The notes: generated by a model from the sequence alone, not told the origin. A stretch of DNA of 32,000 nucleotides from Fidelibacterota bacterium (GCA_004124295.1 SCKI01000009.1:55325-87324), one strand, 5' to 3'. Shown: positions 17,268 through 31,973, counted from the stretch's first letter. Made by a program: numbers and translations.

Positions 17268-17636
17268 TTACCTGGTCCGGCCAGTGATGCTCTGAATCAG
17301 GCCCTCATACCTGCGCCGCAAAATGCGGATCGAAAAATCGTAGCGGATCTGGTTTTGGGCCAGGTCGGCCATCTCGCGGGTCAACTGGACAGGTCCCTTC
17401 TCCCAATCGGGAGCATCTGATACCACCGACTCCGGACTGATGTGCCGGGAATCGGATTTCCTTAACCGCAGCTGGCTCTCTACCTTGTTAAGATCGTCGA
17501 GGAAACGGGTCGGTTTGCGATTGTAGCCCGGCTCGTTCATCCGGGAGACATTCTCGGCTATGTTGCGATTATGCCCCATCAAAAGGTCCAGGGACCGCTT
17601 GAGCAGCAGGGTTGAAGGTGTGCTGAATATTTTCAT
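17268..17636 (-). CDS. flgB: Flagellar basal-body rod protein FlgB
   Basis: 122 aa. Contains LLKRSLDLLMGHNRNIAENVSRMNEPGYNRK (rod N-terminal motif) and the C-terminus MADLAQNQIRYDFSIRILRRRYEGLIQSI. It is the first gene of the operon. Confidence 0.9.
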   Translation of the reverse strand: MKIFSTPSTLLLKRSLDLLMGHNRNIAENVSRMNEPGYNRKPTRFLDDLNKVESQLRLRKSDSRHISPESVVSDAPDWEKGPVQLTREMADLAQNQIRYDFSIRILRRRYEGLIQSITGRTR

Positions 17637-17673
17637 GTTTCCGTTTCCATCGAAACCTGTTCGCTAAATAAGC

Positions 17674-17690
17674 ATCAATATTTATGCCAA
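17674..17690 (-). promoter_or_regulatory. Candidate sigma54 (-24/-12) promoter for the flgB operon
   Basis: The reverse strand reads TTGGCAT-AAATA-TTGAT, against the consensus TGGCAC-N5-TTGCW. Spacing is correct, but the -12 element is GA rather than GC. It lies 38 nt upstream of the flgB ATG, and a sigma54-dependent activator gene is nearby. Confidence 0.4.
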
Positions 17691-17809
17691 ACGGTGCTGT
17701 GGATCACAATTGAGGGGAATGGCCCGGTTTTCCAGGCCGCAGAGGGCCGCTTGGGCCAGTGAGGGGAAAAAGTTACCGCCCGGGGAAGGGGGGAAGATGA
17801 ATACCGTAG

Positions 17810-17869
17810 CAGTGGCCCGTCTACTTCCGGCAGCTGCCGGACTACGCCGGGTAAACAGTGGCAGTTGGC
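17810..17869 (-). repeat. REP-like element (single copy, inverted relative to 19209-19268)
   Basis: The reverse complement GCCAACTGCCACTGTTTACCCGGCGTAGTCCGGCAGCTGCCGGAAGTAGACGGGCCACTG matches 19209-19268 at 57/60. It contains GTAG followed by the palindrome TCCGGC-agct-GCCGGA and a second GTAG. Confidence 0.7.
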
Positions 17870-17894
17870 GGTGAGGGGTCAACCTGCGCCTGTC

Positions 17895-17936
17895 GAGGGA
17901 TGAGGGATGAGGGATGGGGATGTTGGATGAGGGAAA
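17895..17936. repeat. Heptanucleotide microsatellite (GAGGGAT)n, about 6 imperfect units
   Basis: gagggat gagggat gagggat ggggatg ttggat gaggga, read directly from the sequence. Confidence 0.7.
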
Positions 17937-17944
17937 AATGCAAA

Positions 17945-18018
17945 ATGAAGGGAAAGATGAACCGCCAAGCCTGCCCTGAGCTTGCCGAAGGGCCTACCCT
18001 GAGCTCGTCGAAAATGCC
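17945..18018 (+). repeat. Purine-rich leader plus CCGCCAAGCYTGCCCTGAGCT element (direct repeat of 19090-19147, with an internal duplication)
   Basis: atgaagggaaagatgaaCCGCCAAGCCTGCCCTGAGCTTGCCGAAGggcctaCCCTGAGCTCGTCGAAaatgcc compared with atgaagagtgaagatgaagttggaCCGCCAAGCTTGCCCTGAGCTCGTCGAAGttgcc. Confidence 0.7.
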
Positions 18019-18120
18019 TTTCCAGAGCGAATCTACGAATACCGGCCACCGACAGTCCATTATTCCGGGCAGTGGACGGTATCCGCCTGCAGCGGGCCGG
18101 TGATTCCTCGTCCCGGCCGC

Positions 18121-18567
18121 CTACACCTCCAGGCGGTACTTCAGCACCGAGTCGTCATCATAATAGAGCCGCAGCACATGACTGTCAATCCTGTACGAAT
18201 GAGATTGAGGAAGTGCCAGGTAGTAGGTGTCTTCATTATGATGGAGCTCGTTCGATAAACAGCCCCTTAGCGTCGTGAGAATACTGCCGATCTCCAACGC
18301 GCCATTTTCCGAAACCATATAAGTGGCCCCGTATTGATTGCAAAAGGAATCACCACTCAGCCGACTATCATCTGAAAATTGGATGGTCACAAACCGGGCG
18401 GGGCCAACCAGGATAATGGGCTCTCCGGGCGCAAAAATGGATTCGAGGGTCCACACGTTGTCCAACAGGTCGGCGTCGGGGAGCGGCTCCTGACAGCCAG
18501 AGAATAGGGCGAGGCATAAAAGTGCGCTGGGGAGTAGAAATCCCGCGCGTGCGCTAATGGTGTTCAT
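18121..18567 (-). CDS. META-domain (HslJ-like) lipoprotein
   Basis: From the internal Met: MNTISARAGFLLPSALLCLALFSGC (lipobox LFSGC). The META pattern follows: VWTLESI...VTIQFSDDSRLSGDSFCNQYGATYMVSENGALEIGSILTTLRGC...YRIDSHVLRLY. The longer ORF-track start at 18711 overlaps the upstream gene and was rejected. Confidence 0.75.
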   Translation of the reverse strand: MNTISARAGFLLPSALLCLALFSGCQEPLPDADLLDNVWTLESIFAPGEPIILVGPARFVTIQFSDDSRLSGDSFCNQYGATYMVSENGALEIGSILTTLRGCLSNELHHNEDTYYLALPQSHSYRIDSHVLRLYYDDDSVLKYRLEV

Positions 18568-18574
18568 GGCAAAC

Positions 18575-19009
18575 CTATCGGGGGCTGAGCTTGATCTTAT
18601 ACCGACCCCAAAAGTCGTCGAGCATGAGCACGTTTTCATCAAGCGTAAATCGATCGGCCGCTTCCAAGGCAAGAACGAAACGCCCCTCCAGAATGCTCCT
18701 CCTCCCGCCACACGCCATCTCTGTTTGGGATAAAAAGGTCACGGACAGTGTCCAGCCCCCCAGCATGGCATAGACGCCGCTGAAATGGTTGCACGGTGTA
18801 CTGGCGCCAACGTCCCAATCATCGAGGAAATGAACGATCATGGTTGTATCCGGGCCGGGTCTGATCGTCTCCTCAGGGGTCCAAAGTTTGTCCACCTGCC
18901 ATGCAGTGCCCAGCAAGGCTTCATCCATCAACGGTGCGCGGGTCAGGTCACATCCGGCTGCCAGGAACCAAACCGTCACAGGGAGAAAAAGCGTATGGGC
19001 AACTCTCAT
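18575..19009 (-). CDS. META-domain (HslJ-like) lipoprotein, paralogue of the downstream gene
   Basis: Signal peptide plus lipobox (VWFLAAGC). META pattern: AWQVDKLW...MIVHFLDDWDVGASTPCNHFSGVYAMLGGWTLSVTFLSQTEMACGG...FTLDENVLML. Confidence 0.75.
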   Translation of the reverse strand: MRVAHTLFLPVTVWFLAAGCDLTRAPLMDEALLGTAWQVDKLWTPEETIRPGPDTTMIVHFLDDWDVGASTPCNHFSGVYAMLGGWTLSVTFLSQTEMACGGRRSILEGRFVLALEAADRFTLDENVLMLDDFWGRYKIKLSPR

Positions 19010-19089
19010 AGTGGGATAGTCGGCTATTCAGGGGCAAAAGTCAAGGAAAGGGTGAAGGGTGCGGGAAAATGTTAATTGTCGATTGATAA

Positions 19090-19147
19090 ATGAAGAGTGA
19101 AGATGAAGTTGGACCGCCAAGCTTGCCCTGAGCTCGTCGAAGTTGCC
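19090..19147 (+). repeat. Purine-rich leader plus CCGCCAAGCTTGCCCTGAGCTCGTCGAAG element (direct repeat of 17945-18018)
   Basis: See the feature at 17945-18018. Same orientation on both sides of the META gene pair. Confidence 0.7.
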
Positions 19148-19160
19148 CGGAGGCATAGGG

Positions 19161-19195
19161 AGGACTAAGGACTAAGGACCAAGGACCAAGGACTG
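19161..19195. repeat. Heptanucleotide microsatellite (AGGACYA)n, 5 units
   Basis: aggacta aggacta aggacca aggacca aggact, read directly from the sequence. Confidence 0.75.
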
Positions 19196-25479: not shown

Positions 25480-25932
25480 TCAGGAGCTGAATTCAAAGCG
25501 GACTTCGTGCACCGCGCCACAGCTGCAAGCTACGCGCACGCCAACTATCTCCCCGTCATCGAGCAGGGGCTCAATTTCCGCCTTGCCCGCATGTGCCGAA
25601 CTGTCGGCAGGGAGGGTGGGTATAATCTTCCGGCGGCCCTTCTCCGTGACCAGACGGCTCCTGATGATCTTGCGGTGCCCCAGCGTAGAAGGGGTTACCG
25701 AGTCAAAGCTCGCCTCTTCCCAGGGAACAAATCCGGCATCGTCAGCCGCATCGGGGGCAGAGGGCGCCGCAGCCTGCTTCTTGCCGGGCTGGGAGATATC
25801 TCCGGTGAGGTCCTCGGAGGGGCGCTCTTTATCGGCGGGATTCACGAAGGGCCCGCTTGCCGTTGGGCTGGAATGACTGTGCTTGTCGACAATGCCAAAA
25901 CGCTGATTCCTCTCCACCCTGCCTGAGGGCAT
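25480..25932 (-). CDS. Hypothetical protein (disordered N-half, small C-terminal C-x-C beta module); first gene of the regulatory operon
   Basis: The ORF is followed after 2 nt by the fapA-like start. The C-terminus reads IEPLLDDGEIVGVRVACSCGAVHEVRFEF. The start is uncertain: ATG at 25932 or in-frame GTG at 25917. I recognise no family. Confidence 0.45.
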   Translation of the reverse strand: MPSGRVERNQRFGIVDKHSHSSPTASGPFVNPADKERPSEDLTGDISQPGKKQAAAPSAPDAADDAGFVPWEEASFDSVTPSTLGHRKIIRSRLVTEKGRRKIIPTLPADSSAHAGKAEIEPLLDDGEIVGVRVACSCGAVHEVRFEFSS

Positions 25933-25950
25933 GCTTCATGCCTGGGTAGC

Positions 25951-25965
25951 GCAAAAGCTGTGCCA
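25951..25965 (-). promoter_or_regulatory. Sigma54 promoter (perfect -24/-12 core)
   Basis: The reverse strand reads TGGCAC-AGCTT-TTGC, an exact match to TGGCAC-N5-TTGC. It lies 19 nt upstream of the ATG at 25932 and is oriented toward the regulatory operon. Confidence 0.6.
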
Positions 25966-26699
25966 TTGCAGTTGCGCAAAGGCCCGCAACGAGCCGGCTG
26001 CCCATTCCCTCGGCGGTCCACTCTACCTATGCGTAAGATTAGGGTCTGTACTCATAACTAGGCAATATTTTCCTGTTCATGCCCCACTCCAGCGCAGACT
26101 ATATCTGCCGGCGATGGACTATGGGGCCAATATCACACTTTCATATATTCCCTTGACAACGACCTGATTTTTGCATATCGTTGGACCCCGTCTGTAGAGC
26201 CGATCTGGCTCGGGAGTGAATGTGAGTTTTTGGGTTCAGGAAGGTTGTATTCGCGTGCATATATGTTAAAGCCATTCCATCCGTTCATGTCAAGCAGCCC
26301 GACCTTAGGTGAGACAGGGCCTGCACGAGGCGCCCAACAAGGCTGCCGCCGGTCTGAATGCCTGCCGGAATCTGGCGGCAATGCCGTTCCTGCGTCAGTG
26401 CACCGCGGTGGGAACCCTTTTTGAAGAACTTCCATAGCTTGATCCACACGGAGGTTCCCTATGACTCTGTACCGCAATACCTGATGCAGGTATCAGAATC
26501 GAATCCGCGAATGATTACAAAGGGACCATTACATAGTATGTGTCGCGAGGCGGCCAGAAAAAGGGCCATCTGCTCCAGTGCAGCGATCAATTAGCCACTG
26601 TTTTTGAGGAGACCCATGTCCTGAGAGAAGCATATCTGGGGGTGTGTAGTGAACCGCATAGTGAACAATGAGTAGTAAATATAGAAGGAGTATGATGTC

Positions 26700-27719
26700 A
26701 TGAACAGCAGAACGCAACCCACCCCCACAGCTGCGCGCCTGGCGAAGTCGGCAGTAATCGTATTCATCGCTATCGCTGCCGGCCTGGTGCCCTTGGAAGC
26801 GCAGGGCGCCGAATCCAAAAAAGGAATCTCCGGCAAGGTATATTTCAACTGGACCTACGACGCCGATCCGGATGCTGCGGGATACAATGAATTTACCTTT
26901 ACCCGGCTCTATTTGAGTTACGGGAAAAATCTCTCGGAATCGATAAAAATCACTCTTACGACCGACATCCTGAATAATGGGACACCTTGGGTCGCTTACC
27001 AGAAATATGCCTATCTTACCGCCAAACTGGGCAAGGGCGAGGTGTTTATCGGTCTCCAGGGGATGAATATTTTCAACATCACCGAAAGCAACTGGGGCTA
27101 CCGCTTCCTGGCCAAGTCCAGCATGGACGCGCACAAGTTTGCCAGTTCGGCCGACATGGGGTTGGGATATGCCGCCACTTTTGCCGAAAAGGTGCACTTG
27201 CACCTCACCGTCACGAACGGTAAAGGATATAAGTATGTGGAGAATGACAAGTACAAGAAACTTGCGGCTCAGGCAGTATTCGGTGAAAAATCCTTGGCCT
27301 CCCACAGCGGCTTTAATGCCGGCGCTGCATTCAGTTTTGAGCCGTATGAATTTGGCATCGATATGACCGAATCCATATCGGTTTTGACCGTCTTCGGTGC
27401 TTTCGCAACTGAATCTCTACGGATCGGAGGCGAATTTGACCGCAAGATCGATAGCGGTAAATATACCCAGCAAATCATCGCAGCTTATCTGGACTACCAC
27501 ATTTCGGCTATTCACAAAATGCACGTCAATGTCTTTGGCCGCGTAGAAATCTACGACAAGAACATCGATGAGCCGGGCGATGAACTAAGTATTCTGGCGG
27601 GGCTTAGTATCTCCCCGGTCAAGACCTTGCATATCGCTCCCACGATCCAAATTGGGGAATTGGCGTCTGGCGACCTTGGCCTCAGCGCATTGCAGCTCAA
27701 CTTTGAATTTAAATTCTAG
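26700..27719 (+). CDS. Outer-membrane beta-barrel porin (family not identified)
   Basis: SD GAAGGAG 9 nt upstream. Signal peptide AVIVFIAIAAGLVPLEAQG. Alternating amphipathic strands rich in Y/F/G. C-terminal beta-signal LQLNFEFKF ending in Phe. Confidence 0.6.
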   Translation: MNSRTQPTPTAARLAKSAVIVFIAIAAGLVPLEAQGAESKKGISGKVYFNWTYDADPDAAGYNEFTFTRLYLSYGKNLSESIKITLTTDILNNGTPWVAYQKYAYLTAKLGKGEVFIGLQGMNIFNITESNWGYRFLAKSSMDAHKFASSADMGLGYAATFAEKVHLHLTVTNGKGYKYVENDKYKKLAAQAVFGEKSLASHSGFNAGAAFSFEPYEFGIDMTESISVLTVFGAFATESLRIGGEFDRKIDSGKYTQQIIAAYLDYHISAIHKMHVNVFGRVEIYDKNIDEPGDELSILAGLSISPVKTLHIAPTIQIGELASGDLGLSALQLNFEFKF

Positions 27720-27786
27720 AGCAGGCGCCATGTAATGGCAAGGGTTGGAATGGTCAGGCAATCGATGGAGGCAACGGCACCGCGAT

Positions 27787-28431
27787 ATGATAGTAAAGAG
27801 CAGGATAGACCCGTGGAATACGAAAGTATGGCTAGGATTGATCACGGTGTTGCTAGCGCCTGGATGGGCTCAAATCAATGGGATTTCGAATGAAAAATTA
27901 TCGCTGCCCAATGCAGCCGTACTCGCGGCAGGACTCTTTGAGTTCGAGCCCGGCTATGCCCTGCAAGGTGATGATCGATCAGTGGCCTTCCGGTTTACCG
28001 CCGGATTCGGAAAGTTGGAGGCTGGCGTGAGCCTCGATGGCGCGCTGCGCAACCAGGCCTTCGGGCTGAAAATGGGCTTGTTGCCTGACCGGCTGGCACT
28101 GATTGCCGGGGTGGAATATGATACCCGTTTCCATGATACGGCCCTCGGCATCGTCTATAGCGCCCCAATCAGCGGCAGACTCTTTGCCGATATTTCCGCC
28201 GTGGCAATCAGGCCGCGTGATTGGACCTTTATGGCGGGCCTGGGCTTTTTTGTTTCCGGCCAGCTGCAGCCCATTCTGGAACTGGTGGCCGATCAGAACG
28301 GATTTTCCAACATCAGTTATGGGTTCACATTCCGCCATAACGATAATGTGTTGGTGGTAGTCGGAGTGGAGCAAACGTTTAACCAGGGTGAAGAGCACCT
28401 GATGATTCTAGCCTTCACTTTTTCCATGTAG
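27787..28431 (+). CDS. Putative small outer-membrane beta-barrel protein
   Basis: From the Met at 27787: MIVKSRIDPWNTKVWLGLITVLLAPGWAQ (signal-like). Short alternating strands follow (VAFRFTAGF, LEAGVSLDG, FGLKMGL, ALIAGVEYD, ALGIVYSAP, TFMAGLGFFV, ISYGFTFRH, LVVVGVEQTF, MILAFTF). The start could instead be 27745. Confidence 0.4.
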   Translation: MIVKSRIDPWNTKVWLGLITVLLAPGWAQINGISNEKLSLPNAAVLAAGLFEFEPGYALQGDDRSVAFRFTAGFGKLEAGVSLDGALRNQAFGLKMGLLPDRLALIAGVEYDTRFHDTALGIVYSAPISGRLFADISAVAIRPRDWTFMAGLGFFVSGQLQPILELVADQNGFSNISYGFTFRHNDNVLVVVGVEQTFNQGEEHLMILAFTFSM

Positions 28432-28473
28432 CAATGAAATTCGAGGCAGCGCCTGAATTTTAAGGAGATTCCC

Positions 28474-29214
28474 ATGCGAAAGTCTAACCCCATACTGTTT
28501 GTTGCGCTCTTGGTTGCAGCGGTCCTCTTCGGCCATGTTGCAATGATCGAAGCCCAGGATCTCAGTGCGCTTAAGTCCGGTAACCGGCGCTTCGTAAGAG
28601 GCCTGACCAACCAATCCGCCCGGCAGTACCCTCATCAGGACAAGTCGCGGCTTGATCAGAATGCCACCGGCGGGCAGCAACCCTTCGTAACGATCATAAG
28701 CTGTTCGGATTCACGGGTGCCCGTCGAACTCGTATTTGATGCCGGCTTAGGCGATATTTTTTCAATCCGCATTGCCGGCAATGTCTGCGATATCGACGAG
28801 GCCGGGTCTATCGAGTATGGGGCGGGTCACCTGAACACACCCCTGCTGGTTGTTTTGGGCCACACGGGCTGCGGCGCCGTAACAGCCGTGGTCGAGGGCG
28901 CAGAAGTTCATGGCAGCATCCCCAGGCTGGTGGATAATATTATCCCGGCGGTGGCTCGCGCCAGATCCCAGCACCCTCGCGCCCGCGGAAAAGAGTTGAT
29001 AAATTTTGCGGTAACCGAAAACGTCTGGCAGGGCATTGACGACCTGTTCAAAATAAGCGTGGAGGTCCGCCATCTGGTGTCATCCGGTTCTCTGGATGTA
29101 CAAGGGGCGGTTTATGAACTGGAGACCGGCAAGGTCAAATGGTTGGGCCGGCATCCCGATCAGCGCGCCCTGCTGAGATACACCGGCGGTACGGGATCAC
29201 GCGAAAGTCACTGA
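28474..29214 (+). CDS. Secreted (periplasmic) beta-class carbonic anhydrase
   Basis: SD AAGGAG. Signal peptide ILFVALLVAAVLFGHVAMIEAQ. Beta-CA zinc-site motifs C-S-D-S-R (28703-28717) and H-T-G-C-G. N-terminal GNRRF motif. Confidence 0.9.
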   Translation: MRKSNPILFVALLVAAVLFGHVAMIEAQDLSALKSGNRRFVRGLTNQSARQYPHQDKSRLDQNATGGQQPFVTIISCSDSRVPVELVFDAGLGDIFSIRIAGNVCDIDEAGSIEYGAGHLNTPLLVVLGHTGCGAVTAVVEGAEVHGSIPRLVDNIIPAVARARSQHPRARGKELINFAVTENVWQGIDDLFKISVEVRHLVSSGSLDVQGAVYELETGKVKWLGRHPDQRALLRYTGGTGSRESH

Positions 29215-29321
29215 GAACAGTGAAAACTTTGACCATCCATATATGCTTCTTTGCCAGGGCAATGATTGTGAGCAGCTTAGTTGAATTGCAGATGTGTGAA
29301 TAAGGGCGATTGGAGATTCTT

Positions 29322-31973
29322 ATGAGAAACCGAATTTTTTATACACTTATCATAGGGCTGTTGATGGCGGTAAATCTGCCGGGGCAAAGTTCCCGGAACA
29401 AAGCCCAAGGCCTCAACGCGCTGATGATGGGCAATCAGCGTTTTGTAAACGGCCTAACCGATCAATCGGCGCGGCAGTATCCCCATCTCGACCGGGCCCG
29501 GCTCCGGGAGAACGCCTCTTCGGGGCAGTATCCCTACGCAACCATTATCGGTTGCTCCGACTCCCGGGTACCCATTGAAATTATATTTGATGCCGGCATA
29601 GGCGATATCTTCCCTATCCGGGTGGCCGGTAACGTGTCTGACGTGGACGAAATCGGTTCCATCGAATACGGGGTGGGCCACGTCAACACACCCGTCATGC
29701 TCGTCCTGGGCCATACGGGCTGCGGTGCCGTGACCGCCGTGGTGGAAAACGCCGACGTGCGCGGCAATATCCCGCCGCTGGTAGACAATATCATTCCGGC
29801 TGTTGCCACTGCCCGCTCGAAATACCCGCGTGCCCGGGGGGCGGCGCTGATCAATTACGCCGTGGAGGAGAATGTCTGGCAGAGCATAGCCGATCTCATC
29901 AACAACAGCGCAGAAACTGCGCGCCTGGTCTCCAGCGGCGCCCTCGCTGTGCTGGGAGGTGTCTACCATCTCGAAACCGGCGCAGTCGAATGGCTGGGCG
30001 AACATCCCGCACAGGAGAGTCTGATAGCATCCAGCGGCGGGAGTGGGCAGGCAACTGCCGCGATAACCGGTCGCCGTGCTGGCCAGAGCACGAGCCATAG
30101 CACACCGGCCGACAGCAGAATTCGTAACAATCGATCAACCCAAATAGCATCATCAACGAGTGCGCAGAGGGGAACTGCGCACGCAAGCACACCCACTGAA
30201 GGGGGTATATCAATGGATCTCATTATGATAGTCGGCCTGGTACTGCTGGGGGTAGGGGGACTTTTCTTTGTCCTGACCAAGACCGCCTGGAAGCTGGACA
30301 ACCTGAAGATTCGCTACAAGATCATGACCCTGTCCGCGAGCATCGCGACGGTATTCGCCGTTGCGCTTTTTTACTCCAGCGCCAAGATCGCCAGTATGGG
30401 TGAAGGATTCCGGGAAGTGGAGAAGGTCTATATCCCCCTCATCGGAGTAATGTCCAAAATCGAAGCTCATATGTTCGAGCAGGAGATCAGCCTGCTGCAA
30501 GTGGTTATCGCAGAGCGGGACCATAATGAACAGGCCATGCTGGAGCACGAGGAAGAGTTCGAACATTTGGCGGCCCAAGTCAAGGAGGAAATCCTTGAGG
30601 CCGAGCTAATCGTCCAGGAGGGTCAGCAATTTGCCCAAGATGAAGCCGACGAGGCCTGGCTGGAAGAAACCCTGGAACACCTGAAGAAGATCGACCGGGA
30701 ACACGACGAATTCGACGAGGGCGGCCTGGAGATCTTCGCCCTGATCGCCGCAGGCAATACGAGGGAAGCGAACATGTTGGAAGCGGAAGTTGCGGAGGAA
30801 GGCTTGCAGCTTGCGATGGAGATTGAGGTGTTCCTTGACAGCGTTGAGGTGCGCACCGAAGAAATCAGCGCGCATTTGTCGGCCGAGGAAAAGGCGGCCC
30901 TGCTGGCGGTAATCGTCCTGGCCATCGTCGCTATACTACTGGCCATATTCCTGACATTATTCATGTCAAGCGCCATTACCAAACCCATTGGCCAACTGCT
31001 TGTGGGAATGAAAGCGCTGGGCGATGGGGATCTCACCAGGACGGTGGAAATGGCCAACAAGGACGAAGTCGGCGATATGGCGGAGTACCTTAACGAAGCG
31101 ACAGATAGTCTGCGCGCAACAATGCAAAAAATCATGACCAGTTCCGGACAGGTGCAGGATGCTTCAATACAGATATCATCTGCTTCTGAGGAATTGGCGG
31201 CTGGCGCCGAGGAGCAACAAGCGCAGCTCTCGGAGGTGGCCACTACGATGGAACAGATGAGCGCGATGATATTGGAGTCCAGCAAGAACGCTACCGAGAC
31301 GCGCGAAAGCGCTCAGGCGACCGGCGGGACGGCGCAAGAGGGGCGGGATACCGTTACCAAAACGGTTACGGGATTTGAAACCATGGCCAAAACGGTGGAG
31401 CAAGCCGCCGGCCAGATTCAGGAACTAAGCCGCCGGTCGGAAGAGATCGGCAAGGTGATCCAGGTGATTGACGACATCGCCGATCAGACCAACCTGCTGG
31501 CCCTGAATGCCAACATTGAGGCGGCCCGGGCCGGAGACGCTGGCCGGGGCTTTGCCGTGGTTGCCGATGAGGTCCGCAAACTGGCCGAAAGGACCGTGAG
31601 TGCTACAGCGGAGATTGGCAAAATGATAGAAACTATCCAGAACGATATTCAGACAGCTGTGGGCTCCATGGAAAACCTCCAGTCGCAATCCCAGGAGGGG
31701 CTCGAATTGGTTAATGAGTCCGACCAGTCGCTGGAAAACATATCCTCTTCGATTGAAACTGTCATCAGCGCCGTCGAGCAGATTGCCACGGCAACCAATG
31801 AGCAGAGTTCGGGGGCTGAGGAGATATCCAAGAATATCGAGGGGGTAACGACGGTAGCCAAGGAGTCGGCTTCCAGCGCCCAGCAGATGGCATCCTCGGC
31901 CGAGCAACTCAATCGGGAGGTCGAGGGACTGAACACCCTGATCGCCCAATTCAAAGTCGATGCCGATAAGTAG
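29322..31973 (+). CDS. Fusion protein: periplasmic beta-carbonic anhydrase - linker - TM - complete methyl-accepting chemotaxis protein (helical sensor, HAMP, MCP signalling domain)
   Basis: GGAG 6 nt before the ATG at 29322. Signal-like [17 protein letters not shown]. Beta-CA motifs CSDSR (29553-29567) and HTGCG (29712-29726). S/T/G/R linker. [24 protein letters not shown]-type N-terminus [11 protein letters not shown] plus a TM. An acidic helical domain. [29 protein letters not shown] (ITKPIGQLL...[11 protein letters not shown]). Signalling hairpin [38 protein letters not shown]. No stop codon anywhere in 29322-31970. Confidence 0.85.

Follow-up and report, generated by a model that had tools for sequence, protein, structure and literature searches.

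The DNA analysed in this study is a window of 32,000 nucleotides (nt) from a Fidelibacterota (Marinimicrobia) bacterium, whose source contig (L089, 542 kb) extends past the window end. Its subject is a cluster of four co-directional open reading frames (ORFs) on the plus strand, here called g1 to g4, which encode a porin, a probable small beta-barrel, a secreted beta-class carbonic anhydrase (CA) and a second CA fused to a methyl-accepting chemotaxis protein (MCP), referred to below as CA::MCP (Table 1). A previous sequence-only reading of this DNA had described a module of four envelope genes that diverges from a flagellar regulatory operon, and most of that description was confirmed. The coordinates and orientation of the ORFs are as claimed, and so are the intergenic gaps, with 25 nt (TTG start of g2) or 67 nt (ATG start) between g1 and g2, 42 nt between g2 and g3, and 107 nt between g3 and g4. 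The envelope location of the four products and the domain calls were also right, as seen from their signal sequences, the two barrel models and the Pro_CA, HAMP and MCPsignal domains. The 339-residue barrel said to end in FEFKF is likewise present, with a 16-stranded AlphaFold2 model and the terminus LNFEFKF. The divergent operon lies on the minus strand across a 767-nt spacer and encodes FapA, two response regulators, a histidine kinase and a sigma54 activator; beyond it lie FliF, FliG, FliH, FliI, FliK, FlgD, FlgE, MotAB, FliL, FliM and FliN.

The limit of four genes, on the other hand, did not stand. A gene for a secreted alpha-class CA of 259 amino acids (aa; PF00194, E=8e-43) follows 307 nt downstream of g4, beyond the window (L089 12960-13739), and is itself followed on the contig by a hybrid histidine kinase and then a malic enzyme (17524-19167). 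As judged from these domain assignments, the cluster extends past the window end and holds three periplasmic CA domains in total.

Table 1. Positions of the four genes, the divergent spacer and the predicted segments of g4, counted from the first nucleotide of the window.
Feature	Position	Strand	Description
g1	26700-27719	+	339 aa, hydrophobic signal sequence, C-terminus LNFEFKF
g2	27787-28431	+	214 aa from likely ATG 27787; ORF open from TTG 27745
g3	28474-29214	+	246 aa, secreted beta-CA
g4	29322-31973	+	ATG start, 883 aa, CA::MCP fusion
g4 signal peptide	29322-29393	+	about aa 1-24; needed for the sole topology with a cytoplasmic HAMP
g4 periplasmic beta-CA	29409-29996	+	about aa 30-225; Pro_CA, CSDSR and HTGCG
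g4 tether	30006-30218	+	aa 229-299, about 65-70 aa, low-complexity, S/A/G/T/R-rich (composition)
g4 extra transmembrane (TM) hairpin	30219-30377	+	TM 300-318, 15-aa K/R-rich cytoplasmic loop, TM 334-352 (hydropathy)
g4 periplasmic helical sensor domain	30378-30896	+	aa 353-525, 173 aa, very acidic
g4 third TM and HAMP	30897-31118	+	TM aa 526-544; HAMP aa 547-599
g4 MCP signalling domain	31383-31856	+	aa 688-845
Divergent spacer	25933-26699		767 nt, flagellar regulatory operon (minus strand) to g1

Carbonic anhydrase domains of g3 and g4

The Pro_CA profile (PF00484, cutoff 25.7 bits) matches g3 with E=8e-37 (127.3 bits) and the N-terminal domain of g4 with E=7e-35 (121.1 bits), and profile positions 1 or 2 to 156 of 156 are covered in the two proteins. 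The closest solved structure to g3, which carries an N-terminal signal sequence, is CanB from Mycobacterium tuberculosis (PDB ID: 2a5v; E=1e-28), and the closest solved relatives are all genuine CAs. The motifs CSDSR and HTGCG are intact in both g3 and g4 and align to CADSR and HDSCG of 2a5v. Sequence comparison thus identifies g3 and the N-terminal domain of g4 as beta-class CAs. The possibility of a pseudo-enzyme was considered and rejected on account of the intact motifs.

These domains share their fold, Cys-His-Cys zinc site and Asp-Arg dyad with CanB (Rv3588c, 2a5v/1ym3) and with the secreted beta-CAs of the PRK15219 subfamily. The likeness to PRK15219 (E=3.4e-37 and 128 bits for g3, E=7e-41 for g4) spans almost the whole mature protein, yet the scores of 128-140 bits stay below the NCBI cutoff of 221 bits. 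A second difference is that one copy is fused to an MCP here, and that the same type of CA is fused to a porin elsewhere. The fused CA of a related species (L005) is 76% identical both to g3 and to the CA domain of g4, whereas these two are 68% identical to one another. Because the L005 domain is closer to both than they are to each other, g3 appears to be a lineage-specific duplicate of the receptor CA domain.

Architecture of the chemoreceptor g4

The C-terminal part of g4 has the domains of an MCP, with an MCPsignal match of E=1.3e-47 (162 bits, cutoff 34.6) and a HAMP match of E=5e-10 (40 bits, cutoff 25). A weak match to 4HB_MCP_1 (E=0.0016) covers residues 327-428 and falls mostly on the region of the TM hairpin, the short loop of which obeys the positive-inside rule. 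In the only topology predicted to be self-consistent, the CA domain is periplasmic and is tethered via the extra TM hairpin to an ordinary two-TM receptor. A cytoplasmic location of the CA domain was rejected, as it would place HAMP outside the cell. The span between the second and third TM segments contains 26.6% Asp and Glu, 6.9% Lys and Arg, and 4% His; the corresponding values for its core (residues 366-520) are 27, 5.8 and 4.5%.

Fusion proteins in other lineages

The best 120 relatives of g4 were used for counting fusion architectures, and 98 of them are CA::MCP fusions. Exactly three TM segments lie between the last CA and the signalling domain in 91 of the 98, which share the layout CA(1-3 copies)-TM-TM-LBD-TM-MA, where LBD is the ligand-binding domain and MA the signalling domain. 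The linkers equivalent to the g4 tether measure 37-154 aa in 91 homologues, and there is one CxDxR motif per CA domain. The fusions occur in Marinimicrobia, Zixibacteria, Planctomycetota/Phycisphaerae and Spirochaetota, and those at three loci (L003, L084 and L111) adjoin CheW, CheA and CheR in che operons.

The other 22 relatives are free tandem CAs without an MCP, and three of these are fused to a porin instead (P0032, P0034 and P0084; loci L086 8001-10973, L087 797-3664 and L088 1139-4069). They consist of a signal peptide, two beta-CAs, a coiled-coil linker and a C-terminal Porin_O_P barrel, and the barrels match the g1-family profile with E=1e-10 to 1e-12. At L086 the CA::porin gene is followed by a chemoreceptor with 4HB, HAMP, MCP and CZB domains, and an orthologue of that receptor follows at L088. 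At L087 the neighbouring genes encode FlhA, a sigma-70-family sigma factor (Sigma70_r2/r3/r4), a PilZ protein and two response regulators. The CA::porin architecture appears to be undescribed. As far as these domain assignments indicate, an O/P-type porin, this type of beta-CA and a chemoreceptor have been joined pairwise in three ways in different lineages, which is much stronger than adjacency in one genome.

Conservation of the cluster in Marinimicrobia

The order g1-g2-(CA)-CA::MCP is found again in two more species of Marinimicrobia, where the flanking genes are unrelated. In Neomarinimicrobiota TS1B10-1 (L001/L004), the g4 of which is 81% identical, the genes are g1, g2, an extra ORF, CA, CA::MCP and alpha-CA (L001 12833-13609, L004 16182-16961), with UDG and acetyltransferases on one side and sugar-nucleotide enzymes on the other. 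The second species (L002/L005, g4 60% identical) has a second porin paralogue, g1, g2 and CA::MCP but no free CA, and the cluster adjoins SUF genes. The sequence-only reading had proposed a check of neighbourhood conservation, and these two loci provide it. Because the gene order recurs in two species with unrelated flanks, comparison of the sequences indicates an arrangement beyond chance.

The extra ORF of L001/L004 lies between g2 and the free CA (L004 11799-12404, equivalent to L001 8516-9076). It encodes 186-201 aa, has no Pfam match and is absent from the window, where 42 nt separate g2 and g3.

The porin g1 and its family

The AlphaFold2 model of g1 has a pLDDT of 86.7 and shows 16 strands with a helical L3 loop between strands 5 and 6. 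A Foldseek search gave TM-scores of 0.6-0.68 to general porins, OprP, OprO and DcaP, with a TMq of 0.68 to 2o4v. The g1 sequence itself matches no Pfam or NCBIfam family at E<=0.1, so that it lacks a direct match to Porin_O_P (PF07396), but this family is reached by 14 of 61 distant members of the g1 family. A g1-family profile matches 3,204 representative proteins, and among PDB sequences it finds OprP (E=1.6e-7), OprO (E=8e-5) and nothing else significant. From the model and the profile searches we are confident that g1 is a 16-stranded outer-membrane porin and a distant homologue of OprP/OprO, and its sequence relationships indicate descent from oxyanion channels.

The OprP and OprO porins of Pseudomonas aeruginosa (2o4v, 4rjx) share with g1 the 16-stranded barrel and the inward-folded L3 loop, and many g1 relatives, residing in pst operons, are their functional analogues. 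In contrast, g1 is about 70-90 residues shorter, and its own clade adjoins chemoreceptor and CA genes rather than phosphate operons. Conserved basic residues in g1 (R69, K102, R135, K139, K178, K187 and R241) are common to the relatives in phosphate operons; at 10-14% identity they could not be mapped to the arginine-ladder and lysine-cluster sites of OprP.

An alignment scan of 185,579 species genomes yielded 80 g1-family loci, and among these g2 and CA::MCP are present at L004 and L005 only. In a neighbour-joining tree, which carries no support values, the window porin and those of L004-L009 form a monophyletic clade. An MCP adjoins six of the seven porins of this clade compared with none of the approximately 70 outside it, and no pst, phoU or NaPi neighbours were found at the seven loci. 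At L006, L008 and L009 a different MCP, with a dCache or helical sensor domain, lies directly beside g1. The sequence-only reading had suggested that the barrels be classified, as membership of families with unrelated, well-defined substrates would count against a common function. The outcome is divided: g1 falls in the OprP/OprO lineage, which has well-defined substrates elsewhere, but its own clade is without phosphate genes and g2 matches no family.

Outer-membrane barrel genes lie repeatedly upstream of or beside chemoreceptor genes (L104 1502-4016, L106 8172-11193, and L006, L008 and L009), suggesting that dedicated outer-membrane channels and chemoreceptors are paired more generally. The malic enzyme gene lies right after the g1 orthologue at L006 (2465-5339) and L007 (6320-9298), and at the far end of the inserted CA block on L089. 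This neighbour may link the g1 clade to CO2-releasing or CO2-fixing C4 metabolism, or may hint that the porin substrate is malate or another dicarboxylate. An arrangement with PhnD-like proteins and oxidoreductases, found within L010-L083, resembles arsenite-oxidase/arsenate-reductase (aio/arx) clusters. In the FCB group, OprP-like porins have diversified into phosphate-, oxidoreductase- and chemoreceptor-linked clades.

The small barrel g2

The g2 protein has a signal peptide ending GWA/Q and an alternating strand pattern. Its AlphaFold2 model contains 12 strands but has a low confidence (pLDDT 52.7) and does not allow the fold to be assigned firmly. The structures that this low-confidence model resembles most are the 12-stranded barrels NanC, KdgM, FapF and PcoB (TM-scores 0.5-0.69). 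No Pfam or NCBIfam match was found for g2, and the protein is rare, with 9 clusters in 5.8 billion proteins. On the basis of the model, g2 is probably a small secreted beta-barrel of 12 strands. In size (about 185 mature residues) and predicted 12-strand meander it is similar to the acidic-sugar porins KdgM/NanC and to the COG4313/Phenol_MetA_deg barrels, from which it differs in having no sequence-family match of its own, the comparison being based on the same low-confidence model. A relative at L106, 25% identical, matches Phenol_MetA_deg weakly (23.5 bits, cutoff 22) and DUF5777 also weakly. This relative and another remote one at L104 directly precede 4HB MCPs.

Proposed function and alternatives

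Taking the genes together, we consider it somewhat probable that the cluster is an envelope apparatus for inorganic-carbon chemotaxis, in which CO2, HCO3- or the proton of hydration would be sensed. The uncatalysed interconversion of CO2 and HCO3- takes tens of seconds, whereas bacterial chemotaxis compares concentrations over approximately 1 s; uncatalysed hydration of CO2 could not keep pace with chemotactic sampling, and catalysis would therefore be needed. Beta-CAs exist as obligate dimers and MCPs form homodimers, which makes a fusion of the two structurally natural. With a CA held at the receptor, CO2, HCO3- and H+ in the periplasm would equilibrate rapidly and thereby track external CO2 or dissolved inorganic carbon (DIC) within the sampling time. 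The helical acidic sensor domain would then read a change in external CO2/DIC as a change in bicarbonate or local pH. HCO3- would be exchanged between the periplasm and the medium through the anion porin g1, and perhaps g2, and the output of the receptor would go to the flagellar motor encoded next door. A broader proposal is that CA-tethered chemoreceptors are a widespread class of enzyme-coupled sensors with which flagellated bacteria of several phyla, abundant ocean Marinimicrobia among them, would navigate by CO2/bicarbonate (or CO2-derived pH), and that some lineages recruited oxyanion channels as neighbours or by CA-porin fusion; we regard this as tentative, its chances falling a little short of even.

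Several observations weigh against chemotaxis towards inorganic carbon as the function of the cluster. About 40 of the 80 g1-family loci lie in pstS/pstCA/phoU/NaPi operons, and about 15 adjoin a PhnD-like binding protein, a histidine kinase, a sigma54 regulator and Fe-S/molybdopterin/NrfD oxidoreductases. Only six mild, uninformative substitutions separate the MCP-linked g1 clade from its phosphate-linked relatives, and g1 could still conduct phosphate or another oxyanion. Because most relatives sit in phosphate or molybdenum (Mo)-oxidoreductase contexts, a bicarbonate role is inferred for the MCP-associated clade of g1 alone. At L006 and L007 the g1 orthologue is directly followed by a malic enzyme and a TonB-dependent receptor, without g2, CA or CA::MCP. 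At L007 FapA lies upstream of g1 on the other strand, as in the window, and at L006 the order is MCP - g1 - malic enzyme. The site FapA | g1 ... malic enzyme would thus either predate the block of g2, CA, CA::MCP, alpha-CA and histidine kinase or have lost it, and part of the adjacency in the window may be an inherited position. Homologues of g2 with approximately 40% identity have no g1, CA or MCP nearby. At five CA::MCP loci of other phyla no g1- or g2-like barrel was found within 8-10 kb (L003, L084 and L085 were searched with profiles). The acidity of the sensor domain is only modestly above that of eight control MCPs and was not used as evidence. Finally, the tether is long and probably disordered, and conformational signalling by the CA is unlikely; the CA would for this reason supply chemistry rather than a conformational signal.

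The sequence-only reading had linked the genes by adjacency alone. That link has gained from the synteny in three species, the CA::MCPs across phyla and the CA::porin genes beside MCP or flagellar genes, and has lost from L006, L007 and the loci of other phyla.

An unlikely alternative is that the cluster serves the housekeeping of periplasmic inorganic carbon and pH, with the porin, the CAs and the malic enzyme supplying HCO3-/CO2 for anaplerotic carboxylation or buffering the periplasm. The CA of the receptor would then merely condition the surroundings of the receptor, and DIC taxis would not be the function. Such a role fits the presence of three secreted CA domains in one cluster, the malic enzyme downstream on the source contig and directly after g1 at L006 and L007, and the common occurrence of free tandem CAs without an MCP (22 of 120, including the three porin fusions). 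Against it, at least 98 protein clusters that share a single conserved topology have a CA joined covalently to a chemoreceptor, several CA::MCPs lie in che operons, the CA::porin fusions adjoin MCP or flagellar genes, and neither a bicarbonate transporter nor a carboxylase was seen among the genes of the cluster.

We assign a similarly low probability to a largely coincidental neighbourhood, in which g1 would be an ordinary phosphate/oxyanion porin with a long-standing place between the flagellar operon and malic enzyme, the CA/CA::MCP block would have been inserted beside it, g2 would be unrelated, and the genes would form several transcription units without a common function. The arrangements FapA | g1 - malic enzyme at L007 and MCP - g1 - malic enzyme at L006, both without CA genes, agree with such an insertion, whereas L004 and L005 keep g1, g2 and CA::MCP as a group although they lack FapA and malic enzyme as neighbours. 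The g1 family as a whole resides mostly in pst or Mo-oxidoreductase operons, yet the association with MCPs is confined to the clade of g1 (six of seven members against none of about 70). Separate transcription units would be in line with the g3-g4 spacer, which is conserved like a promoter region, and with the AT-rich gap before the alpha-CA gene. Porin-CA fusions that exist independently of this cluster speak against a coincidental neighbourhood.

Beta-CA-fold enzymes include hydrolases of carbonyl sulfide (COS) and CS2. That the CA-fold domains act on or sense another molecule (COS, CS2 or cyanate-derived bicarbonate) or bind non-catalytically, with the receptor reporting this or phosphate via g1, is nevertheless very unlikely, since every one of the nearest relatives with a solved structure is a true CA, conservation of the zinc and Asp-Arg motifs is complete and the same cluster holds an alpha-class CA, a class without such alternative chemistry, even though the nearest characterised relatives of g1 are phosphate and pyrophosphate channels and MCPs with other sensor domains adjoin g1 relatives.

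Precedents and significance

Helicobacter pylori relies on a periplasmic alpha-CA. Its TlpA is the nearest functional precedent for the proposed inorganic-carbon receptor, as a case of bicarbonate and acid sensing in an organism with a periplasmic CA. The signals reported for this bacterial chemoreceptor are arginine, bicarbonate and acid (PMC8406319). Unlike g4, which carries the CA in the receptor polypeptide and has a helical bundle as its sensor domain, TlpA contains a dCache domain and lacks both a fused enzyme and a linked dedicated porin, and the CA is a separate gene that serves acid acclimation. An analogy can also be drawn to CA-dependent CO2 chemosensation in eukaryotes. It is known from the CO2-sensing olfactory and taste cells of animals, and from fungi, in which a CA acts with a bicarbonate-activated cyclase. 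In these systems a CA at the sensor turns slow-reacting CO2 into quickly readable HCO3-/H+, but the proteins, compartments and signalling pathways are entirely unrelated.

The statement of the sequence-only reading that no system of this composition is described agrees with our searches. In the literature searched, which did not extend to subscription literature, we found no account of CA::MCP proteins, CA::porin proteins or the cluster itself, and the only related report was bicarbonate sensing by TlpA. The parts are, from their sequences, of known kinds (beta-CA, alpha-CA, MCP, OprP-like porin and small barrel), and what is new would be a receptor with a built-in periplasmic enzyme together with dedicated outer-membrane channels.

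Little has been established at the molecular level about bacterial chemotaxis towards CO2 or bicarbonate, and the literature searched describes no chemoreceptor with a catalytic enzyme built into its periplasmic side. If the proposal is true, it identifies a receptor class, explains the need for catalysis and provides a testable set of parts, namely the receptor, the free CAs and the two channels. These abundant heterotrophs of the deep ocean and oxygen-minimum zones could then steer by signatures of respiration or photosynthesis around particles and algae.

Transcription, regulatory sequence and neighbouring genes

GGAG-type ribosome-binding sites are present upstream of g1, g3 and g4. A consensus scan found no terminator-like sites in the three gaps between g1 and g4, and the RNA folding of the gaps was no better than that of shuffled sequences (z = +0.8, -0.9 and +1.6); the sole feature seen was a weak hairpin with UUUU behind it, between g2 and g3. 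The g3-g4 spacer (29215-29321), which has no stable RNA fold, was compared with that of L004 (13222-13328). Identity was found at 97 of 126 window positions (77%), with a mean column identity of 88% reported by the tool, and this conservation is approximately at the level of coding sequence, between genomes whose proteins are about 80% identical. As judged from this conservation, the spacer may act on the receptor gene as an internal promoter or as a regulatory site. The short gaps are compatible with a single transcript of g1 to g4, although the conserved spacer could hold an internal promoter. Regarding the suggestion in the sequence-only reading that separate promoters or terminators would divide the unit, the part concerning terminators found no support in the gaps, whereas the g3-g4 spacer keeps an internal promoter possible.

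The 767-nt divergent spacer must contain the g1 promoter. A single sigma70-like site, TTGACA-17-TATCGT, was found in it at 26153-26181, and regular-expression scans detected no sigma54, sigma28 or Bacteroidetes-type promoter motifs upstream of g1 or in the three gaps. The spacer upstream of g1 showed no conservation when aligned with L004. Outside the window, the gap before the alpha-CA gene is AT-rich with promoter-like sites, and the sole match of the regular-expression scans was found here, a weak sigma28-like site (TAAA-N15-CCGAAA) some 115 nt before the alpha-CA start.

The flagellar locus occupies 325-25932 on the minus strand, in the order FliN-like, FliM, FliL, MotB, MotA, FlgE, FlgD, FliK, FliI, FliH, FliG and FliF, followed by the regulators; it also contains a META-domain protein and a 150-aa ORF without a family match. 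No che genes were identified among the window ORFs scanned, and no Rfam match was obtained for the whole window at the gathering threshold or for 25800-29400 at E<=1.

Apart from the window, the FapA | g1 arrangement occurs only at L007, the proteins of which are no more than about 50% identical to those of the window. A 19-nt block, AACTAGGCAATATTTTCCT, at 26056-26074 of the window is identical to L007 5370-5388. Situated 124 nt upstream of the minus-strand operon of the 150-aa ORF and FapA, the block probably serves the flagellar regulatory operon as a promoter or operator, as suggested by its position and sequence identity.

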